This document shows positions 27,605 through 48,029 of a stretch of 51,920 nucleotides of DNA, one piece after another (position 1 is the first letter of the stretch; each line of letters opens with the position of its first letter). Source of the stretch: Pseudomonadota bacterium (GTDB lineage: Bacteria > Bdellovibrionota > FAC87 > UBA2466); the NCBI GenBank assembly GCA_043718025.1, contig JAYSWN010000165.1, positions 1-51,920 of the forward strand. Reading direction: 5' to 3'. A model generated the notes under the pieces. It was not told where the DNA came from. It did not search any database and worked only from the letters and a program-made list of their open reading frames with translations. The position numbers and the translations under genes are program-made.

Positions 27605-27632
27605 CCCTGCGTTTTTTAACCCCATGCCCTTG

Positions 27633-27665
27633 GGCGGACCCTGCGAAAGGGTCCGCCTTTTCTTT
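27633..27665 (+). terminator. Rho-independent terminator
   Basis: GGCGGACCCT-gcgaa-AGGGTCCGCC followed by TTTTCTTT. Confidence 0.85.
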
Positions 27666-27714: not shown

Positions 27715-28647
27715 ATGTCGTTCATTAAAAATCACCTGTTCGTCGTTGCCCTCTTTTTTTATGGCCCGTTAGTTTGGGGGGATGCGCCGGCCAAAGGCAA
27801 AACTCTTTTGCCCCAGGCGCAGGTTTTTAGCTGCGACTTTGATGACAATATTTTTTTCACGGACGCTAAGATTTACCTTTGGGATGCGGCGAATCAGCGG
27901 GAAATACCGGTCACGACGCAGAACTGGGCCTTGGTAAAAAATAAAGTGGGTAAGGCCGGTGAATGGAAAAACATGACCATTCGTCAAGAGTCACTTCGCG
28001 ATTTCCGTGATGACTCAGAGTTGGGCACCGACATCGTAAAAGTCCAGGTAGAAAGGGCATTAGAGAAAAAGGGGGCCAGGGCCTTTGCCCCTTCCTTCAA
28101 CGCGATGAGAGATGCCTTGTCTCATCCCTCCACCCGAAAACGCTTTTTTGTAATCACCGCCCGCGAAAACTCTCCCGCGGCGATATTGAAAGGTTTTGAG
28201 GTGCTTAAAGAGCGGGGCTACCTCAGCGCCTTACCGCTGGTCGAAAACATTTTCCCCGTGTTGTGGAAAGAGTTTCCCCCGGCCTTACGTGGAGACAGCG
28301 TTAGCGAAAGCAAAGCCAACGTCATGTTACGTATATTGGACGAGCTCGAAAAAGAGCCGATGCCGTCCGATGCGTTGGAGGTAGATGGTCGCGATGGCAC
28401 CGTAAAAGAAAAGCTCCACCTCTGGGGGTTTTCGGATGATGACTTTGATAATTTTAGCAAAGCCCGAGAGGTTTTGGCCGCTCAGGTGGCCAAAGGGCGC
28501 TGGCCGCACGTAAAAGTATCGCTGTTCTTTACCGGCTTGAATAATCCGTTGGAGAGTTCACGCGCCGAAGTGATCATGAACAACGGTCTGACCCGACCGG
28601 CCACAAAGAATGAAGGCACGCGCATGGGAAGCAAACCCAAGCCGTAA
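27715..28647 (+). CDS. Exported HAD-superfamily-like protein
   Basis: Signal peptide; DFDDN (motif I), ITAR (II), K (III), GFSDDD..N (IV). Confidence 0.65.
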   Translation: MSFIKNHLFVVALFFYGPLVWGDAPAKGKTLLPQAQVFSCDFDDNIFFTDAKIYLWDAANQREIPVTTQNWALVKNKVGKAGEWKNMTIRQESLRDFRDDSELGTDIVKVQVERALEKKGARAFAPSFNAMRDALSHPSTRKRFFVITARENSPAAILKGFEVLKERGYLSALPLVENIFPVLWKEFPPALRGDSVSESKANVMLRILDELEKEPMPSDALEVDGRDGTVKEKLHLWGFSDDDFDNFSKAREVLAAQVAKGRWPHVKVSLFFTGLNNPLESSRAEVIMNNGLTRPATKNEGTRMGSKPKP

Positions 28648-28706: not shown

Positions 28707-29369
28707 ATGATTCACCCGAACATGACGGGTGAGCTCAGCATCGAAAATATCGAAAAGAGTTTTTGTCTGCCCCACCCCTGGGGAGTGCCTTGGCTCGCCA
28801 AAAAGGCCGAGGTCATTCGAGGTTTTTCTCTCCGCCTCAGAGTGGGCGAAATTGCGGCTTTGGTAGGCGCCAATGGCGCGGGAAAAACCACCATTCTTAA
28901 AATTGCGATGGGAATGTACCGGCCAAGCCGCGGCCGGGTGCTGATCGACGGCCAACCGGCCCACGCCGTGCCCCGAAAAAATTTGGGAATGATGATGACC
29001 CATCGCCTCTTGTACCCAGCGCTTACGGGCTACGAGAATCTGGCTTATACCGCTGCGTTGTACGGTTGCCGCGAGATTAAGGCCGAAATCGCCGCTAGTT
29101 CAGAGCAATGGGGCCTGCAAGCTTACTTGCAGCGCCCGATGCAGGAGTATTCGCAAGGCATGCGTACGCGTTTGGCCTTGGCCCGCGCCACGATTACGCG
29201 CCCCCGCTTTCTTTTCTTAGACGAGCCTTTTTCGTTTCTCGATGACGAGATCGGGCTTCCCCACGCCATTAAGGTGATTCGCGCCTTGGGGGTGACCACG
29301 CTTATCACCTCGCCGGTGCGATCGGTGGTTGCTTTCGCCGACAACGTGGTGGAGCTGCAAGCCTTATGA
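28707..29369 (+). CDS. ABC transporter ATP-binding protein
   Basis: GANGAGKTT Walker A, YSQGM signature, FLFLDEPF Walker B; H-loop appears degenerate (LITSP). Confidence 0.9.
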   Translation: MIHPNMTGELSIENIEKSFCLPHPWGVPWLAKKAEVIRGFSLRLRVGEIAALVGANGAGKTTILKIAMGMYRPSRGRVLIDGQPAHAVPRKNLGMMMTHRLLYPALTGYENLAYTAALYGCREIKAEIAASSEQWGLQAYLQRPMQEYSQGMRTRLALARATITRPRFLFLDEPFSFLDDEIGLPHAIKVIRALGVTTLITSPVRSVVAFADNVVELQAL

Positions 29370-30148
29370 ATGCACTCGCGGTCTTTTTTAAAAAAGAGTT
29401 GGCGCTGGAGAGTCGGTATGCGGTGCCGCTGCTGCAAAGCTTATTCATAAGTCCTATGGTAACCGCCCTGCCACTCTTTTTTGTTTACCGTAGCGTCTTT
29501 GTAAATTCGCAACATCAAGTGGCGGGGTGGAATGGTTCAAATTATTTGGCGCAGATCGGAGTTGGCCTGATTTGCCATTTTTGTTTGAACAGCGGTAGTT
29601 ACGTTCTCTTCAATCGCATTCTCGCCGAATGGCATCACCACACATTTGCCCTATTGTGGTTCTCCCCTCTACCCCGTTTGGCAAATTTACTGAGCCTTTC
29701 GCTTCCCGATATTTTTCGTTCCGCTTTTTTTGCGGGCGGGGTTACCGCTTTATTATTTTGGCGACAGACCAGCCCTGCGGGATTGCTCGGGGCAAGTTTT
29801 CTGTTCTTGCTTTTTTTTCTCTTTGGGGCGGCATTGGGAATATTAAGGTTTTTTCAGCACCTGCTTTTTCCGGCGGCACTCGACTTCGTCAATTTTTTTT
29901 ACCTGGGACTTCTGTTCACCTCGGGACTCTACTTTCCGGTTGGGGTGCTGCCGGCGCCCTTTAATTCTCTGGCGGCGTCTAATCCGCTTTTTCACGGCAA
30001 AGTGGCCATTCTCGCTTTGCTGCACGGCAATTCGGCCCTGGCATCGGGCATTTTATTTTTGGCGCCGCTAACTTTTATTTGGTGCGTGGTGTGCCTGGTC
30101 AGTACATTCTATGGCGCCCGGATAAACGAAGCATGCCTAAAGAACTAA
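29366..30148 (+). CDS. ABC-2 type transporter permease
   Basis: About 6 TM segments; SGLYFPV..LP and NPLFH motifs; ATGA overlap with the ATPase. Confidence 0.85.
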   Translation: MNALAVFFKKELALESRYAVPLLQSLFISPMVTALPLFFVYRSVFVNSQHQVAGWNGSNYLAQIGVGLICHFCLNSGSYVLFNRILAEWHHHTFALLWFSPLPRLANLLSLSLPDIFRSAFFAGGVTALLFWRQTSPAGLLGASFLFLLFFLFGAALGILRFFQHLLFPAALDFVNFFYLGLLFTSGLYFPVGVLPAPFNSLAASNPLFHGKVAILALLHGNSALASGILFLAPLTFIWCVVCLVSTFYGARINEACLKN

Positions 30149-30642
30149 CTCCTCTAAAATTTGAAGTCGGAAGCCACAGTATGTGGCCCCTATTGCGGCA
30201 GCATGATCACATTTTGATTCGTCCCCTAATCGATAAAAAAATCAGGCCGGGGCAGGTGGCCGCCTTCGCCGTGAATCACCGCCTCGTCTGCCACCGCGTT
30301 TTAAAGATCGTAGAATATCCAGGCTATCCGGCCAGGTATTTTACCCGGGGTGATTTAGCGATCTCTACCGATCCGAGTCTAAGCGGTGACGAGATCTGGG
30401 GAAGGGTGGTGGGCGTGCAGGGGGCTCCTTTTCGTTCGCTTTGGCTCGGGCCATTGGCGCCCGTGTTTTTGTTTTGGGTCTACGCGCGCGATCAGGTTTT
30501 AGAACGGGTGGGCGTCCACTCTAGGTCGGGGCTCTATCGCGTAATCTATTTGGCATTTTTCCCCTGGGCTGTCTTTCGTCCCGGAGGAAAATTTCGTTCT
30601 GGACCTATTGCTCCGTTAATGAGGATTAAGGCGGAGATTTGA
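30133..30642 (+). CDS. S24/S26 family (signal-peptidase-like) peptidase
   Basis: SHSMWPLL catalytic Ser motif, LVCHRV general base His, TRGD, IWGRV. Confidence 0.75.
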   Translation: MPKELTPLKFEVGSHSMWPLLRQHDHILIRPLIDKKIRPGQVAAFAVNHRLVCHRVLKIVEYPGYPARYFTRGDLAISTDPSLSGDEIWGRVVGVQGAPFRSLWLGPLAPVFLFWVYARDQVLERVGVHSRSGLYRVIYLAFFPWAVFRPGGKFRSGPIAPLMRIKAEI

Positions 30643-31946
30643 AACAGGCGATCACTCCGATTGTGCCGTCTTGGATTCGCGATCCACTGGCGCGCTGGGG
30701 TAGCCGGCCTTGGCTTTGTGCTTGCGGACGCCTGTGGTACAACCGTTCGGCCGCACACGTTGCTCGCAAAATCAGTGATCTGGTAAACCCCACCGAAATT
30801 TATCTCAAAGGTAGCGCGGCTTGGAATGATGTCACGCCGGGTCTTTCTGACTTCGACTTGGCCGTGATCGCGGCGGAGGTATCGGAAACTGAGATGGTAA
30901 GCCAGATGGTTTCGGTACGACGCTATTTGGCGTCGGTGCCTCGTCCCTGGATTCCTCTGGGTGAGGTCTCGTGGATCTTAGAAGGGGAACAAAATCTCTT
31001 TCAGCGAGTGTCACTAAGGCTACCGGCGCGGCACTATTATCTGAAGAAATTTTCAGCGGATCGCCGCGGCTCTTGGGGGGGAGGGGGATGGGGCAAGCAC
31101 GCCACCGCGCAGGGCTTATACGAAAGCGCACTCGAAAAGTACTTGGACGGCTATCATCAACTTCAGTTTGCGGTACAGGGAGTCTGCTCGACTGAACTTG
31201 CTCATCTGCAGGCCGCTAAATTCTGGAAGCGGTGTCTCTCGTTTTTACAGGCCAGCGAGTCGGAACAATTCCCAAAAGAGATCTCCACCGTGGCGGGGCC
31301 GGTGAGTTGGCCGTTATTGGGCGAGATGGCGGCGCAGTGTCTGGCTAAGCTTGAAGCTGCGACGCCACTCATCGGTGAAATTTACCCCAGCCCCGAGATG
31401 ACTGAAACCAATCTGGTGCGGGCCTACGCCGGTCAGCTGGGGCAACTCCTTGAACGAGAATTGGGGGTGAAGGGTTGGTTGCGGATTGAGCCATCGGCGC
31501 CTTACTATTTTGAAGTGCGATCGACTGACGCTGGCCTTCTGGCTAAAACAATGAGGTTGAATTTCGAAGACGCCAAGCAAGTGGCGGTTAAGCTGCAGTT
31601 TCCTTTGCTGACGCCCCGAGTCGCCGCTTACTACCGAGCGAAGGTGTTACCGAGGGTGATTAATTATTCGGCACTATTTAGAAACCAACAATCAATCGCT
31701 CCGATGCCGGTTGAAGAGTGGCAGCCATTTATCGCCGACGTGTTATTTCGGTCCACAGAGACGTTGATGTACCGGCGTCCAGAACAACTTTTGAACTGGT
31801 CGCGTGCCTTTCATCGTTTGAAACAAGAAACGGAAACTTTGTTGGTGGGCGTCGAGTCTAAGCCTCTACTGGCGGCGATCGACAGGCGCGCCCAACTTTT
31901 TTCAAGGTGCGCCGAACGTCTGAAAGATGACCAGCTGCGTTGTTGA
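30639..31946 (+). CDS. Pol-beta superfamily nucleotidyltransferase-domain protein
   Basis: IYLKGSAA...PGLSDFDLAVI (hGS..DxD). Confidence 0.65.
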   Translation: MKQAITPIVPSWIRDPLARWGSRPWLCACGRLWYNRSAAHVARKISDLVNPTEIYLKGSAAWNDVTPGLSDFDLAVIAAEVSETEMVSQMVSVRRYLASVPRPWIPLGEVSWILEGEQNLFQRVSLRLPARHYYLKKFSADRRGSWGGGGWGKHATAQGLYESALEKYLDGYHQLQFAVQGVCSTELAHLQAAKFWKRCLSFLQASESEQFPKEISTVAGPVSWPLLGEMAAQCLAKLEAATPLIGEIYPSPEMTETNLVRAYAGQLGQLLERELGVKGWLRIEPSAPYYFEVRSTDAGLLAKTMRLNFEDAKQVAVKLQFPLLTPRVAAYYRAKVLPRVINYSALFRNQQSIAPMPVEEWQPFIADVLFRSTETLMYRRPEQLLNWSRAFHRLKQETETLLVGVESKPLLAAIDRRAQLFSRCAERLKDDQLRC

Positions 31947-31970
31947 CGTTGCATCCGAATATTCGATAAT
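31943..31970 (+). promoter_or_regulatory. Putative internal sigma70-type promoter
   Basis: TTGACG-N16-GATAAT ending 7 nt before ATG 31978. Confidence 0.45.
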
Positions 31971-31977
31971 TGCCAGC

Positions 31978-32379
31978 ATGCTAAGGCCTAATCTAGTTCT
32001 TCACCCCCGAGTAGTTGCTTCACCCCACGCGGCAGGTTTTTGTGTGCTGCAATTGGTAGGCGCCCTTCAGTTTCAATTTGCGCTGGAGCAGCAAGCTTGG
32101 TTCGAAGCCATGAAATCGGCAAAGGACTGGGATCAGGTGGCAGCTTCGCTTCCTGGTGAAACCAAGGCAAAAACCGCCTTCCTGCTCTTTCTACTTGAAA
32201 AACAGGTTCTACTCGAAACCACCAACGCTGGGACAGGAGATCTTCCCGGTTGGGGGGGGGCGGCTTTGCCGGACTTAGGTAGTTTGGGTCAAACCTTTTC
32301 CACTGCGAAGCCGCAGGAGTGGCAGTTGGGCTTTGCCTTTGCTGATACCATCGCGAGCTCATTGCTTCCGGCGTGTTAA
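31978..32379 (+). CDS. PqqD/RRE-like domain with C-terminal leader/core-like extension (putative fused precursor)
   Basis: First ~80 aa follow the PqqD three-strand/three-helix pattern (LHPRVV..GFCVLQL..QFQF..W....DQVAASL..FLLFLLEKQVL); tail contains PDLGSLG; alternative start 31927. Confidence 0.55.
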   Translation: MLRPNLVLHPRVVASPHAAGFCVLQLVGALQFQFALEQQAWFEAMKSAKDWDQVAASLPGETKAKTAFLLFLLEKQVLLETTNAGTGDLPGWGGAALPDLGSLGQTFSTAKPQEWQLGFAFADTIASSLLPAC

Positions 32380-33557
32380 CCGACCTGCTTTCTAAAATTA
32401 AAGTGGCGATCGACGCCGCCAATCTTGGGGCGGTCGAATTCAGTCGCCGCGCCGACGCGATTGCGCTGGCTCTTGAACAAGTTTCAATTCCGACTGACCT
32501 AAGTTTTAAAGAAATAAACTTAGGGCTACTCACCCATTTTCCATCCGCCGATAGCAGCAGCCCCCTCGCGGCTCATCGAAGATTTCTGGCGATTGAACGG
32601 CCCCTGTATGATGTTGAGTTGATAACGTGGCTCGGTTTCGATACTGCGGTTCACAACCATCCGTTTGACGGTGTGCTTCACGTTTTGACCGGGGAGAGCC
32701 TCAATCTCAATTACTCCTTTTGCCAAAGTGGCGAAGACGGTGACTTAAAGTGGGGGGATCTAAACGTTACCTCGGTCACTCAGGTTGGCCCCCACCGCCG
32801 ATTTGTTTTTCGCAGCCATTCTGATTTCATCCATAAAGTGATCCACTTAAATCACGAGTGCTGCTCACTTCGCATCATGGCGCGTTCTCCCACCCTGCGT
32901 GAAGGGCAGTGGAGTTACCCGGTTCAAGAACTGGCCTTGCCGGTCGTGGCGCGGAGGCAACAAGGATTTTTCATGCGGGTTCCCCTGCTTGACTACTGGT
33001 ACGCTAACGACCGATCTGCATTTCGCCTAGCGATTGAAAAATGGTTTGCCGCCGGCCACCGTGCCGAGGCGATAAGCTACCTCGCCTTTCTGCGGGCGAA
33101 ATTTGATGATGTCGTAGAAACTGAAAATGCAATTGTTGAATCGCGTCACCTCTCGACAGAAGCAAAGACCAAGATTCTCGAAAATTTCTCCGGACTTGCC
33201 GTTAGCATGCTTCCTCCTTATGCAAAGCGATTAGGTCGGGAGACGGAACTGTTTTTGGCTTTAGTAGCGACATTTGGTTTCGGTCGCAAAATGGCCGGCG
33301 CGATTGCCCCGACCCTCAATCGGGAAGCGCCGTTGGCCTGGGTTACGCAAAGGCTAATGGAAATTACCTTGAGCGTCCGTCCAGAACGGGCGCTAGCCTT
33401 GTCTCTGCTCAACCGCCTTAACGAGTGGGAGCGGGGAGGGCATGGTACGATGGCGACACCCACTTCATTTATCTCCGAAGCCTGGCGGGTTGACCAATTC
33501 GAAACGTTTTTATCCGATTTGAAATCGGCCAACCTGCTTATTGGGGGTGGGCAATAG
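32373..33557 (+). CDS. Cupin (cysteine-dioxygenase-like) domain protein with helical C-terminal region
   Basis: TAVHNHPFDGVLHVLTG and FIHKVIH give an HxH...H metal triad. Confidence 0.6.
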   Translation: MLTDLLSKIKVAIDAANLGAVEFSRRADAIALALEQVSIPTDLSFKEINLGLLTHFPSADSSSPLAAHRRFLAIERPLYDVELITWLGFDTAVHNHPFDGVLHVLTGESLNLNYSFCQSGEDGDLKWGDLNVTSVTQVGPHRRFVFRSHSDFIHKVIHLNHECCSLRIMARSPTLREGQWSYPVQELALPVVARRQQGFFMRVPLLDYWYANDRSAFRLAIEKWFAAGHRAEAISYLAFLRAKFDDVVETENAIVESRHLSTEAKTKILENFSGLAVSMLPPYAKRLGRETELFLALVATFGFGRKMAGAIAPTLNREAPLAWVTQRLMEITLSVRPERALALSLLNRLNEWERGGHGTMATPTSFISEAWRVDQFETFLSDLKSANLLIGGGQ

Positions 33558-34996
33558 TGCGCTGGCTGTTTGCCTTTCCGCCGCTTTTCTTATTAGCGAG
33601 AGTCTTTTTTCGGAACACCGCTTCCGAGGGAGAGTCTCCTCGTTCCTACCGATCGCAAGGTAATTCGCTAGCCCCCTGGTTGTTTGTCGCACTGGCCTTC
33701 ACCCTAATCGTGATGCTGTTTCAGCCGATGAATTTCGATGAGCACGGACAGCTTGTGCGCGCCCTTGGTTTCGACCCGAACCCGCCCTCAAATCATTGGC
33801 TGGCGCGAGTCTTTTCTCGATTCGGAGTGCAGGCCGTCGGCCGTCTTTGGGTGGGCGCTCGGTTACCCTCAATTCTGTTTTCTTTTTTTACTATTGCGTT
33901 GTGGTATTTCGTTTCTTCGCTGTACTTAAGTCGCATCGCCGCCACTTGGTTTTCGGCCGCGCTGTTTGCCAATGGCCTTTTTCTGTTCAATGCGGTCTCA
34001 TCCCGCGCCTATTCCCTAGGCATGTTTTTAACCACGGCGTTAGTAACGACATTGGTGAGCTATACCGAAACCAAACAAATTCGCTGGGCTACGCTTTCAC
34101 TGGCTTCTCTCGCTCTGCTGCTAGGCCTGGGTGGTGTGACCCACCGCATGCTGTATTTGGTTTCTATTGTTATTTTCATCGCCCTACTTTTTTGGAGTTG
34201 GCAAAGAGTTGAAAGCCGTATGATGCCGCGACTGGCGGGGCTGGGCGCGGCGCTATTTATCTGGTTAGCCTGGCCCTATTTGTGGGGCGTATTTGATACC
34301 GAGCGGGAAAGCGGATTGTTTTTTCGGACGCTTACGTCGGCAGATTTGGTCTGGAATCGGCTCGAATCGATCTCCTTCCTCTATGTTTTTGGTTGGGACC
34401 GATCTTGGCAAGCGTTGCTTGGGTTTGCTTTTGTCACCACGCTTTTAGCCATTCGCCTTCGTTCATCAGTGGTGCTCTTTGGGGAATACTATTGGGTTTT
34501 GCTTCTTCTCGCGCTTCCCGCCATCGGCTGGGGGGTGGGGAATCTGGCGTGGGAACCCCGTTTTTTTATTTTTTTTCTACTTCCGGGTGTTTTCTTTCTG
34601 GCGCAATCGCTAGATGCCATTCAAACGAGGCTAAAAAAGTTTTGGTGGTCGGTGGCCTTTCTGCTTTTTGTCTTTCTGCCTCTCTTCCAGGCTCCTCGCC
34701 TGTTTATGAATTCCGGCGGTCAAATGGACTTAGTGAAATTTTTGGATGTGGCGGCGAAGCGTTATTCCCGCCATCAGGATTCTTGTCTATCGTGTTCAGG
34801 TAGCCATTCGTATTGCCGGTGGGTTAAAAACATCTACCTGCCCCCGGAACGGGGTTTTGCCTGGTCAAGCCAGTGCGCTCATCCCTGGGTGGTGCGCATT
34901 ACGGGCAATGACCAAAACCCCATGCCGCCGGGGCGCTGGTTGGTCAACTTTGGTTATGGAAGGGACTATTTGTTGTATGAGCCATTGGCGCCCTGA
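33557..34996 (+). CDS. GT-C fold membrane glycosyltransferase (GT39/ArnT-like)
   Basis: About 11 TM segments; NFDE, NPPSNH, ARLPS, RAYSL, EPRF motifs. Confidence 0.65.
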   Translation: MRWLFAFPPLFLLARVFFRNTASEGESPRSYRSQGNSLAPWLFVALAFTLIVMLFQPMNFDEHGQLVRALGFDPNPPSNHWLARVFSRFGVQAVGRLWVGARLPSILFSFFTIALWYFVSSLYLSRIAATWFSAALFANGLFLFNAVSSRAYSLGMFLTTALVTTLVSYTETKQIRWATLSLASLALLLGLGGVTHRMLYLVSIVIFIALLFWSWQRVESRMMPRLAGLGAALFIWLAWPYLWGVFDTERESGLFFRTLTSADLVWNRLESISFLYVFGWDRSWQALLGFAFVTTLLAIRLRSSVVLFGEYYWVLLLLALPAIGWGVGNLAWEPRFFIFFLLPGVFFLAQSLDAIQTRLKKFWWSVAFLLFVFLPLFQAPRLFMNSGGQMDLVKFLDVAAKRYSRHQDSCLSCSGSHSYCRWVKNIYLPPERGFAWSSQCAHPWVVRITGNDQNPMPPGRWLVNFGYGRDYLLYEPLAP

Positions 34997-35036
34997 ACTT
35001 GGCAAAAGCATTTTGCGTCCCAATGAGTCGGATGCG

Positions 35037-36011
35037 ATGCCCGGCCATTCTGCTTTTCAGACGCCGTTCCACGGCAATGTGGGGGGAATTGGATTTGAAG
35101 TGGCATCCGAAATTCCAGAAATCAATCGGTGGTTGGCTCGTGACTACTTGCCTGTGCCCAGCATTGCGCCGACCCCGCTTCGAGTAAAAGTGCTTAATTC
35201 CCCTCCCGCTAAGATTCGTTCGTGGTTTCACTCACCGCGATCGACGTGGAAATTTTGGGGCGAAGTAAACGAAGCCATTTTTTTCGGACGCGTGTCCGTA
35301 CACTATCATTCGGTCGGGCGCTTGGCCTACGTGGCCGGGCAGCACGCGGCGGAAGTGTATGAAGTGGTGGAAATGCTGCTGGCGTCCTTTTTGGGAGAAC
35401 AGGCCGATGCTAAAGGTTGGCACCGCGTTCATGGCTTAGGGGTCAGCTTTCGTGGTGAGGCCACGCTTTTCGTTGGTACGGCGGGCGCCGGAAAGACCAC
35501 CCTGGGGGCCGATCTCTTCTACCACCCCGACGCCAATTATTTTTCAGACGACATTCCGTGGGTAGCGCGAGAGGCAACTCTGCATCCGTATCCGCATCGC
35601 TTTAGCTTTAAAGAGTTTCCGCAATTTCCCCACGCGCAAGTTAGGCCACACTTTCGCCCTCGCTACGGCCAGCGTTTCTACGTCGATGCCGATGTGTTTG
35701 CTGAGCGCTGGTCGGCGCCTCAGCCGTTAAAACGAATTTTTTTATTGAAGCGCGGTGAGGTGAGGGGCTGTTTCTTGCAGAGTCGATGGCGGGTGTTTGG
35801 CTGGCTGCTCCGTTGGTTAGTATTGGGGCTCGAAACTCCGCAGATTTTTGAGTTGCGACTAAGGCTTGGGCCGCTGAGCTTCGGGCGCGCAATTCAGGCT
35901 TTTGTCTCTCGGCTTATTACCGCAATTCGCTTGGCACTCTGGGTGGACGGGTATTGCCTCACCTATCTTTCGGGCGATCGCCCGTCGAAAATTCTCGAAG
36001 ACTATAAATAG
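35037..36011 (+). CDS. HPr kinase/phosphorylase-like P-loop kinase
   Basis: VHGLGV..ATLFVGTAGAGKTTL...FSDDIPWV (His + Walker A + SDD signature of HprK-related kinases). Confidence 0.7.
   Translation: MPGHSAFQTPFHGNVGGIGFEVASEIPEINRWLARDYLPVPSIAPTPLRVKVLNSPPAKIRSWFHSPRSTWKFWGEVNEAIFFGRVSVHYHSVGRLAYVAGQHAAEVYEVVEMLLASFLGEQADAKGWHRVHGLGVSFRGEATLFVGTAGAGKTTLGADLFYHPDANYFSDDIPWVAREATLHPYPHRFSFKEFPQFPHAQVRPHFRPRYGQRFYVDADVFAERWSAPQPLKRIFLLKRGEVRGCFLQSRWRVFGWLLRWLVLGLETPQIFELRLRLGPLSFGRAIQAFVSRLITAIRLALWVDGYCLTYLSGDRPSKILEDYK

Positions 36012-47952: not shown

Positions 47953-48029
<77 letters not shown>

Follow-up and report, generated by a model that had tools for sequence, protein, structure and literature searches.

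The gene considered here lies at positions 31978 to 32379, on the forward strand, of a stretch of 51,920 nt (contig JAYSWN010000165.1 of assembly GCA_043718025.1) that is called the window below, and to the whole of which positions refer unless a contig or locus label precedes them. It encodes a protein of 133 residues in which a RiPP recognition element (RRE; RiPP, ribosomally synthesised and post-translationally modified peptide) is followed, in the same chain, by a tail. The proposal that we favour, and to which we would give about an even chance, is that RRE, flexible linker, the protein's own leader-like segment and a short Ser- and Cys-containing end together make up a one-piece (self-chaperoned) precursor of the LPP (linear polyphosphorylated peptide) type. 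The reasoning is that the enzyme set known from LPP surrounds an RRE which itself carries the only leader-like peptide found. An earlier note on this DNA had reported an RRE fused to a leader- and core-like tail and, with it, a promoter-like site; that observation is confirmed, and the interpretation placed upon it is partly supported. The parts of the gene are as follows.

31978..32379 (+): RRE-precursor fusion gene (P0001), 133 residues from the ATG at 31978, with the same length in the protein collection
31978..32226 (+): RRE/PqqD-fold domain, residues 1–83 (model, Foldseek, VIA-align and profiles)
32227..32316 (+): weakly conserved linker and degenerate leader, residues 84–113
32269–32289 (+): PDLGSLG, within residues 84–113; not conserved
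32293–32295 (+): T106, Pro in three of the four closest relatives, aligned to the family's leader Pro
32317..32346 (+): conserved tail motif EWQxGFxFAD, residues 114–123; candidate peptidase-recognition segment
32350..32376 (+): IASSLLPAC, residues 125–133, the likeliest candidate for a released core, with rival cuts after G118, A122 or D123
32356–32358 (+): S127, predicted phospho-acceptor, inside IASSLLPAC

The RRE domain and the family of RRE-plus-tail proteins

The start at 31978, the second ATG, is the one from which four close relatives align; a version of 150 residues beginning at the ATG at 31927 was rejected, as it overlaps the upstream gene and extends beyond the start of the relatives' alignment. 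RRE and tail share one reading frame, which single contigs of two runs (a possible source of this DNA) match without differences, and the tail quoted in the earlier note corresponds letter for letter to residues 82–133.

That the first 80 or so residues have the pattern of PqqD, as had been suggested, is borne out by the predicted structure and its structural matches. In the AlphaFold model residues 1–83 adopt an RRE-type arrangement, with the three-strand sheet and three helices of solved RREs and with pLDDT (predicted local distance difference test) scores of 78–90 across residues 1–80; the top rows from Foldseek are the RRE-bearing proteins TigE (E 1.6e-3), PbtF, MccB and TbiB1, none of which reach E 1e-3, and VIA-align gives Z values of 8.6 to NisB and 6.4 to TbiB1. 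The fusion protein itself has no match in Pfam (PF05402 included) or NCBIfam, single-sequence searches returned the query proteins alone, and BLASTP gave no alignment between it and its paralog in the same genome (see below). A hidden Markov model (HMM) of 13 family members, built without the fusion protein, nevertheless scores it at 13.9 bits, the maximum over 2000 shuffles being 4.4, and a profile of 81 members has the lasso RRE TbiB1 as its best match in the PDB (E 4.5e-7).

The paralog was reached via the S26 peptidase gene on contig C41 of the same genome. This second RRE-tail gene (C41:57315-57713, +) has a canonical leader, YKKPKYLR, and is divergent from a nucleotidyltransferase–GT2 pair; a PMT-like gene, the S26 gene and further membrane proteins lie nearby. 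Searching from it yielded 13 RRE-plus-tail proteins in 12 of the 38 genomes of the order, while a search of the full library, with a query alignment that included the fusion protein, matched 130 proteins; 119 of these, 95–160 residues long, were aligned, and the 11 outside that length were left out. A tail of at least 25 residues is present in 110 of the 119, so that the tail is conserved family-wide; [YF]xxP occurs in 81 of these 110 tails and PxLxxxG, the pattern relied on in the earlier note, in only 14. The 83 typical members have the consensus Y-x-R-P-x-F-L-R-x-G-E-x-x-L-D-E-hydrophobic-x-F-L-C/Y-P, whose opening, YxRPxFLR, looks to be a leader of the lasso/LPP type. The mean frequency of the top residue, over 81 members, is 0.17 in the linker, 0.52 in the leader, 0.47 in the end and 0.43 in the domain.

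For one typical member, P0007, AlphaFold gives a pLDDT of 87, with the tail block at residues 91–100 at 91 and a strand at residues 98–102, and the best match in the PDB is again TbiB1; this model is what one would expect if the tail docked onto its own sheet as a fourth strand, although the strand pairings themselves are absent from the output. Beyond the leader, many members have clade-specific ends rich in Ser/Thr or Cys, which is the pattern expected of variable cores, and longer conserved ends of this kind are found in 42 of the 83 typical members as well as in the clade of the fusion protein. Nine more distant matches have a different conserved end, DPIHEV, implying that the RRE-plus-tail architecture extends beyond the fusion family. 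Matches in the atlas (a 143-residue cluster at 0.92 and PqqD clusters at 0.88–0.91) are regarded as leads only.

Leader registers and the possible site of cleavage

A tree built from RRE domains only groups the fusion protein with P0127, P0094, P0104 and P0096 (FastTree support 0.98), the contigs of these four closest relatives being 0.7–8.8 kb long. Pairwise identity within the five-member clade is only 24–33%, and common to it is EWQxGFxF, with W115, Q116, G118 and A122 kept in four of the five members, F121 in all five, and D123 and S127 in three; Cys near the end is found in four, including the two nearest relatives, which also have D-[TA]-x-x-S. An HMM of the four relatives' tails, with the fusion protein left out, ranks the fusion open reading frame (ORF) first in its genome (E 1.3e-4; the next scores 0.22). 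The clade profile, run against 401 genomes of the phylum, yielded no further member of the clade and, apart from that, one weak typical member.

The register that scores best jointly over the clade sets T106 against the family's leader Pro and F121 against its conserved Phe. A register anchored on K-P112, the best for the fusion protein alone and equalled by 0.5% of tail shuffles, was rejected as the leader anchor; its column in the clade reads P/N/V/D/P and its joint rank is 4–8 (4th–7th when the full motif is scored). In the scheme put forward in the earlier note it is instead PDLGSLG that the RRE binds, S26 then cutting after AFA and the neighbouring cupin oxidising the terminal Cys of the DTIASSLLPAC so released, and as a whole we consider this scheme improbable. 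PDLGSLG does fit PxLxxxG, and when three registers are compared against the opening half of the family leader, in the fusion protein alone, that of P98 is the best (at a marginal 0.5–3.1 bits); however, the P98 register is equalled in score by 82% of tail shuffles, its column in the clade is P/A/E/G/E, its joint rank is only 7th–11th of 28 registers, and the strand that structure prediction was expected to show is a low-confidence helix in the AlphaFold model, in which PDLG forms a weak helix and E114–Q116 a short strand (pLDDT 55–64). With P98 unconserved, the joint rank low and the model helical, PDLGSLG is most likely a chance look-alike.

The proposed cut after AFA survives in part. Residues 120–122 read AFA, VFA, AFA, VFA and SFG in the clade, so that positions -3 and -1 are small in all five members, but the known RRE-dependent signal peptidase I follows no AxA rule: in LPP (Popov et al. 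2026; PMC13381572) the SipW-like LppS makes an RRE-dependent cut that needs F at -3, E at -2 and T at -1. Across the family, moreover, only 9 of the 110 tails have AxA in their final 16 residues. Two residues further on, A-D-T|x-x-S satisfies both the AxA-type and the LPP rules, and the F-A-D-[T/A]-x-x-S shared by the fusion protein and its two nearest relatives combines an acid at -2, T or A at -1 and Ser at +3 with small residues at -3 and -1; this pattern makes a cut after T124, giving the core IASSLLPAC, the likeliest. Supposing that a cut is made at all, we would by analogy with LPP tentatively place it there, at rather less than an even chance; cuts after A122 and after D123 (which puts F at -3) are equally rated and each unlikely, and a cut after G118 (the Pro+12 spacing of LPP, in the T106 register) or anywhere else has in each case only a slight chance. 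A cut after T124 would make S127 position +3 of the core. An apparent covariation, of Thr in the tail at three other kinase-bearing loci with Ala or Val at five short-tailed loci without a kinase, was rejected, the three being kin and the kinase lying elsewhere in the other genomes.

The surrounding genes and the probable promoter

The genes around the fusion, together with the promoter-like site before it, are the following.

28707..30148 (+): ABC-2 type exporter (ATPase 28707–29369, permease 29366–30148)
30133..30642 (+): archaeal/SipW-type S26 peptidase; S16, H54 and D74 present
30639..31946 (+): nucleotidyltransferase-fold protein; GS...SDxD motif; PF01909 E 7e-4, below cut-off
31943..31970 (+): sigma70-type promoter-like site, TTGACG (31943–31948)-N16-GATAAT (31965–31970), 10/12
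32373..33557 (+): putative His-ligated cupin-type oxygenase; invariant H94, H96, H154 and H158; accessory, in 1 of 15 fusion loci
33557..34996 (+): multi-pass membrane protein, possibly GT-C/PMT-like (weak: Pfam E 0.06)
35037..36011 (+): HprK-related kinase; Walker A and SDD motifs; start uncertain (34977–35079)

The S26 protein matches TIGR02228 at E 1.3e-7, below the cut-off, whereas that of the paralog lies above it; the kinase and nucleotidyltransferase matches are likewise below curated cut-offs, and the membrane proteins that relatives have at the place of 33557..34996 include a match to PF02366. Fifteen fusion loci of 4.6–16 kb, some ended by contig ends, were compared, using profiles seeded from some of these same loci and a neighbour domain scan that covered 59 of the 185 listed ORFs plus the RRE genes. 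S26 is found in 12 of them, the nucleotidyltransferase in 12 (with a thirteenth by PF14907) and the kinase in 4, and the neighbourhood is often made up of GT2, GT4, GT-C and methyltransferase genes. At the level of genomes, S26 at E<1e-30 is present in 11 of the 12 with a fusion and in none of the 26 without (which have 3 weaker matches), 7 of the 11 S26-positive genomes having supplied seeds for the S26 profile; the kinase is present in 11 of 12 as against 4 of 26, and since the genomes are kin all these counts overstate independence. With its Ser/His/Asp intact and its co-occurrence with the fusion, S26 is, judged by sequence and gene context, a plausible partner, as the earlier note had it, and the HprK-like kinase in the operon is a candidate to act on a Ser of the tail. 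No free-standing precursor was returned by HMMs of the tail (with either motif) in the 15 loci or the whole genome, and the operon has no gap able to hold a separate precursor gene. The lasso B2 leader peptidase (PF13471) has no match in the genome, which is 92% complete, and matches to the cyclase PF00733 occur only on three other contigs, none in the locus.

The earlier note also described the site TTGACG-N16-GATAAT as a dedicated internal promoter in the only sizeable gap of this part of the operon. The gap is as described: it spans 31 nt after the nucleotidyltransferase stop, and every other junction between the ABC and GT-C genes, five in all, is an overlap of 1–16 nt. At this gap the -35 box overlaps the upstream stop codon and the -10 box ends 7 nt before the ATG at 31978, and no obvious Shine-Dalgarno motif is found at the fusion start. 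At a loose threshold promoter-like sites are no more frequent than expected (6 sites against 5.8), but no other site in the 10.5 kb scanned reaches 10/12. The whole genome has 176 sites of at least 10/12, and for these, taking the next ATG of a long ORF, 18 starts (17 distinct sites) lie 6–8 nt after the -10 box where 1.7 would be expected, an excess of about tenfold; since the 7-nt spacing falls at this peak, the fusion gene is predicted to have a leaderless mRNA, which we regard as likely on the sequence pattern. Relatives have comparable sites: one of at least 9/12 lies upstream of 8 of 13 fusion genes, the figure for the remaining genes of these loci being 9 of 123 and that for random windows 26 of 1560; this contrast is inflated by several relatives' fusion genes heading their own unit. 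In the three loci, all kin, that resemble the present one in placing the fusion after the nucleotidyltransferase, TTGTCA-N17-TAnAnT lies 23–25 nt before the start. Rarity, spacing and the relatives' sites together argue for a dedicated promoter. The genome-wide peak suggests, as a separate matter, that leaderless translation is common in the lineage.

The idea that the cupin acts on the terminal Cys, as a cysteine dioxygenase would, is not supported: none of the other 14 fusion loci has the cupin, yet many tails end in Cys. Its HxH...H pattern is invariant in 18 homologs, and the family has no sequence match in Pfam or the PDB. Among the 401 genomes searched, homologs occur in 34 others, none in this order. 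Of 19 cupin loci viewed within 1.5 kb, two were widened, and in both there is a separate RRE together with a peptide rich in Pro and free of Cys, which supports a peptide-modifying role for the cupin but not cysteine oxidation. These two loci (L064:2913-4365 and L065:6977-9344, with a Pro/Lys- or Pro/Gly-rich peptide) may represent a new RiPP class in their own right; at a further locus, L040, the cupin stands between a short ORF, a 311-residue ORF and a transporter-like ORF.

Some other fusion loci differ in content. In a same-genus genome (L063:7874-9436) the fusion, whose tail has two leader-like repeats, is followed by PhyH and Rieske oxygenase genes, with no cupin, and another locus (L053:1696-4445) has genes for a B12-dependent radical S-adenosylmethionine (SAM) enzyme and a SPASM radical SAM enzyme, together with a longer, Thr-rich tail end. 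S26 is fused to a SAM methyltransferase domain at L054:8247-9782, L057:3298-4647 and L058:11220-12713, and in three other loci the two are adjacent but separate genes. As for the kinase, at L093, L094, L095 and L097 it adjoins proteins of 765–865 residues ending G-[AV]-G-G-L, two with lipoprotein-like N-termini, which are possible alternative substrates; in the same-genus loci L089 and L100 it lies at the same chromosomal spot, before porin-like and YceI genes, with different content upstream (at L089 a permease directly precedes it). Within the window, a 310-residue ORF at 27715-28647, 59 nt before the ABC gene, has DxDD-like motifs and no Pfam match, and may encode a HAD-type phosphatase; a terminator-like hairpin precedes it at 27632-27658, and a tRNA gene (RF00005) at 47953-48026 is the only feature found by an Rfam scan of the window. 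Elsewhere in the same genome, L018 (C173:25538-28735) is a RiPP-like cluster with a discrete PqqD gene (PF05402, E 7e-14), radical SAM-like and kinase-like genes, and a short ORF with two Cys and a leader-like YHKPTV motif; cross-talk might arise from this cluster, and tethering would prevent it.

Comparison with known systems and alternative readings

LPP, described from Bacillota (LppA/K/B/S/D/N; PMC13381572), is the closest system for comparison. In it a discrete RRE binds a YxxP leader and an HprK kinase polyphosphorylates Ser3 of the core. Common to LPP and the present locus are a SipW-type peptidase with Ser/His/Asp, an RRE, an HprK-like kinase, a nucleotidyltransferase, an ABC exporter, the absence of a cluster cyclase, glycosyltransferase-rich surroundings and, in the wider fusion family, a YxxP-type leader; the acid-T/A|xxS junction in the clade of the fusion protein recalls the E-T|x-x-S and Fx[T/A] of LPP. 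On the other hand, RRE and precursor are one protein here and no discrete precursor was found, so that the discrete pair characteristic of LPP is lacking; the predicted core has at most 15 residues instead of 45; the exporter is a two-gene ABC-2 type and not MsbA-like; the nucleotidyltransferase matches PF01909 weakly, not PF14907; and the fusion relatives are labelled mostly as Bdellovibrionota or Deltaproteobacteria metagenome-assembled genomes, not Bacillota. Nor does this tail conform to the LPP leader, YxxPxVLxHQxIxFET (Px9Fx[T/A]), since it has no YxxP and, counted from P112, position +10 is A, +12 is T and +15 is S; in typical members the motif is YxRPxFL and +10 is Leu. The supplement of PMC13381572 lists one Bdellovibrionota signal peptidase I with two discrete, tail-less RREs, its precursor being not determined. 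The lasso clusters of paeninodin and pseudomycoidin (PMC6993621) share the discrete-type RRE fold, an HprK kinase that phosphorylates Ser and a nucleotidyltransferase, which for pseudomycoidin is needed for addition of a hexose to phospho-Ser; they differ in that here no B2 peptidase was found, the locus has no cyclase, the predicted core no ring-forming Asp or Glu, and the precursor is fused. No natural RRE-precursor fusion was found in the literature searched, which included passages of RRE-Finder (PMC7470986) and the LPP paper (PMC13381572), subscription papers lying outside its scope.

In borosins, too, a RiPP precursor is joined in one chain to a biosynthetic protein, there a methyltransferase acting on the tail that it carries; in the present case the partner is a non-catalytic RRE and the enzymes would act in trans. 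Engineered fusions of leader to enzyme (ConFusions; PMC11414181) work leader-independently, and like the present protein have the leader tethered in cis to its binder, although here the fusion is natural, is made to a stand-alone RRE and not to an enzyme, and is followed by a core-like end.

Several observations tell against the one-piece precursor and must be set beside those in its favour. The joint best register scores negative over the first half of the leader, which implies that the classical YxxP motif (YxRPxFLR) has decayed in the five-member clade; the tail of the fusion protein has a pLDDT of only 40–64, from a model whose input alignment fixed or favoured one register (P112). The 13-member HMM, searched against the genome, did not return the fusion protein, and hhalign gives a probability of 21%. 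Two of eight aligned S26 proteins are without one or two catalytic residues. Only 4 of the 15 fusion loci contain the kinase, which elsewhere lies beside GT2 and GT-C genes and also occurs in four genomes in which no fusion was found, so that it may have other substrates. Finally, in 39 of the 83 typical members the chain stops at Pro+17 or +18, with 0–1 residue following the conserved Phe-x-x, and on the Phe(-3) register these would have no core at all.

The short tails, which are the main doubt, favour a reading that we think distinctly less probable than the one-piece precursor, in which the tail is a permanent built-in leader: it would fill the RRE cleft, keep the domain folded, and recruit or switch on S26, the nucleotidyltransferase and the glycosyltransferases, the substrates being surface proteins, lipids or glycans, with no peptide freed. 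The dominance of GT2, GT4, GT-C and methyltransferase genes in the fusion loci fits this, as does the kinase's frequent location next to GT2 and GT-C genes at a distance from the fusion, and the presence of kinase–GT2–nucleotidyltransferase or GT-C groups in genomes without a detected fusion (G038 and G147); the engineered fusions just mentioned, of which this would be a natural counterpart, work leader-independently, and the RRE LppB is insoluble without its leader (PMC13381572). Against it, six of the eight S26 proteins keep Ser/His/Asp and S26 tracks the fusion, no other candidate substrate was found in the 15 loci or the genome, the longer Ser/Thr/Cys-rich ends described above are conserved, and with the exact Pro+12 spacing of LPP even the short members would free a hexapeptide. 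We think it improbable, too, that an old RRE-precursor fusion has left the tail behind as a relic, or that it is a structural or membrane-binding appendage, no longer processed in this divergent copy: its degenerate leader motif and low-confidence model, the Ala residues at positions apparently equivalent to the leader-gripping N33 and D70 of LppB, and the second, canonical copy in the genome are in favour, but the tail residues kept in four or five proteins of such low identity, the intact S26 next door and the strong promoter-like site count against it.

If the fusion protein is a one-piece precursor, the pathway might run as follows. The gene would be transcribed from its own promoter as a leaderless mRNA, and the tail would fold back onto the RRE sheet in cis (modelled with confidence in the typical member and weakly in the fusion protein), tethering serving to keep the RRE folded and to insulate it from the genome's other YxxP-leader pathway. 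The docked tail would be presented to the kinase, leading to phosphorylation of S127 (by analogy with LPP and pseudomycoidin); the nucleotidyltransferase and glycosyltransferases could then cap the phospho-Ser with a sugar, S26 would cut at the F-A-D-T|I-A-S junction, as in LPP, and the ABC transporter may export the decorated IASSLLPAC-type peptide. More broadly, and with somewhat less assurance than for the one-piece precursor itself, we suggest a natural single-chain RiPP class, in which RRE, leader and core are one protein with its own promoter and a SipW-type peptidase frees hydrophobic phospho- or glyco-peptides of 5–15 residues, the present copy being a divergent one in which WQxGFxF replaces YxxP and a modification made by the oxygenase would be added.

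Genome mining for RiPPs looks for small precursor ORFs beside RREs, and if this proposal is true, a large set of clusters with an orphan RRE and no precursor would become readable. Its predicted products, short and explicit, lend themselves to testing by mass spectrometry with the fusion protein, the kinase and S26. The RRE-dependent signal peptidase I chemistry of LPP would extend beyond Bacillota, the fusion would be a natural answer to the problem of pathway cross-talk raised in the LPP paper (PMC13381572), and an RRE tethered in cis would offer a simple scaffold for engineering. Should the tail turn out never to be cut, the protein would instead be a naturally occurring, permanently loaded RRE that serves a glycosylation system, and this too would be new.

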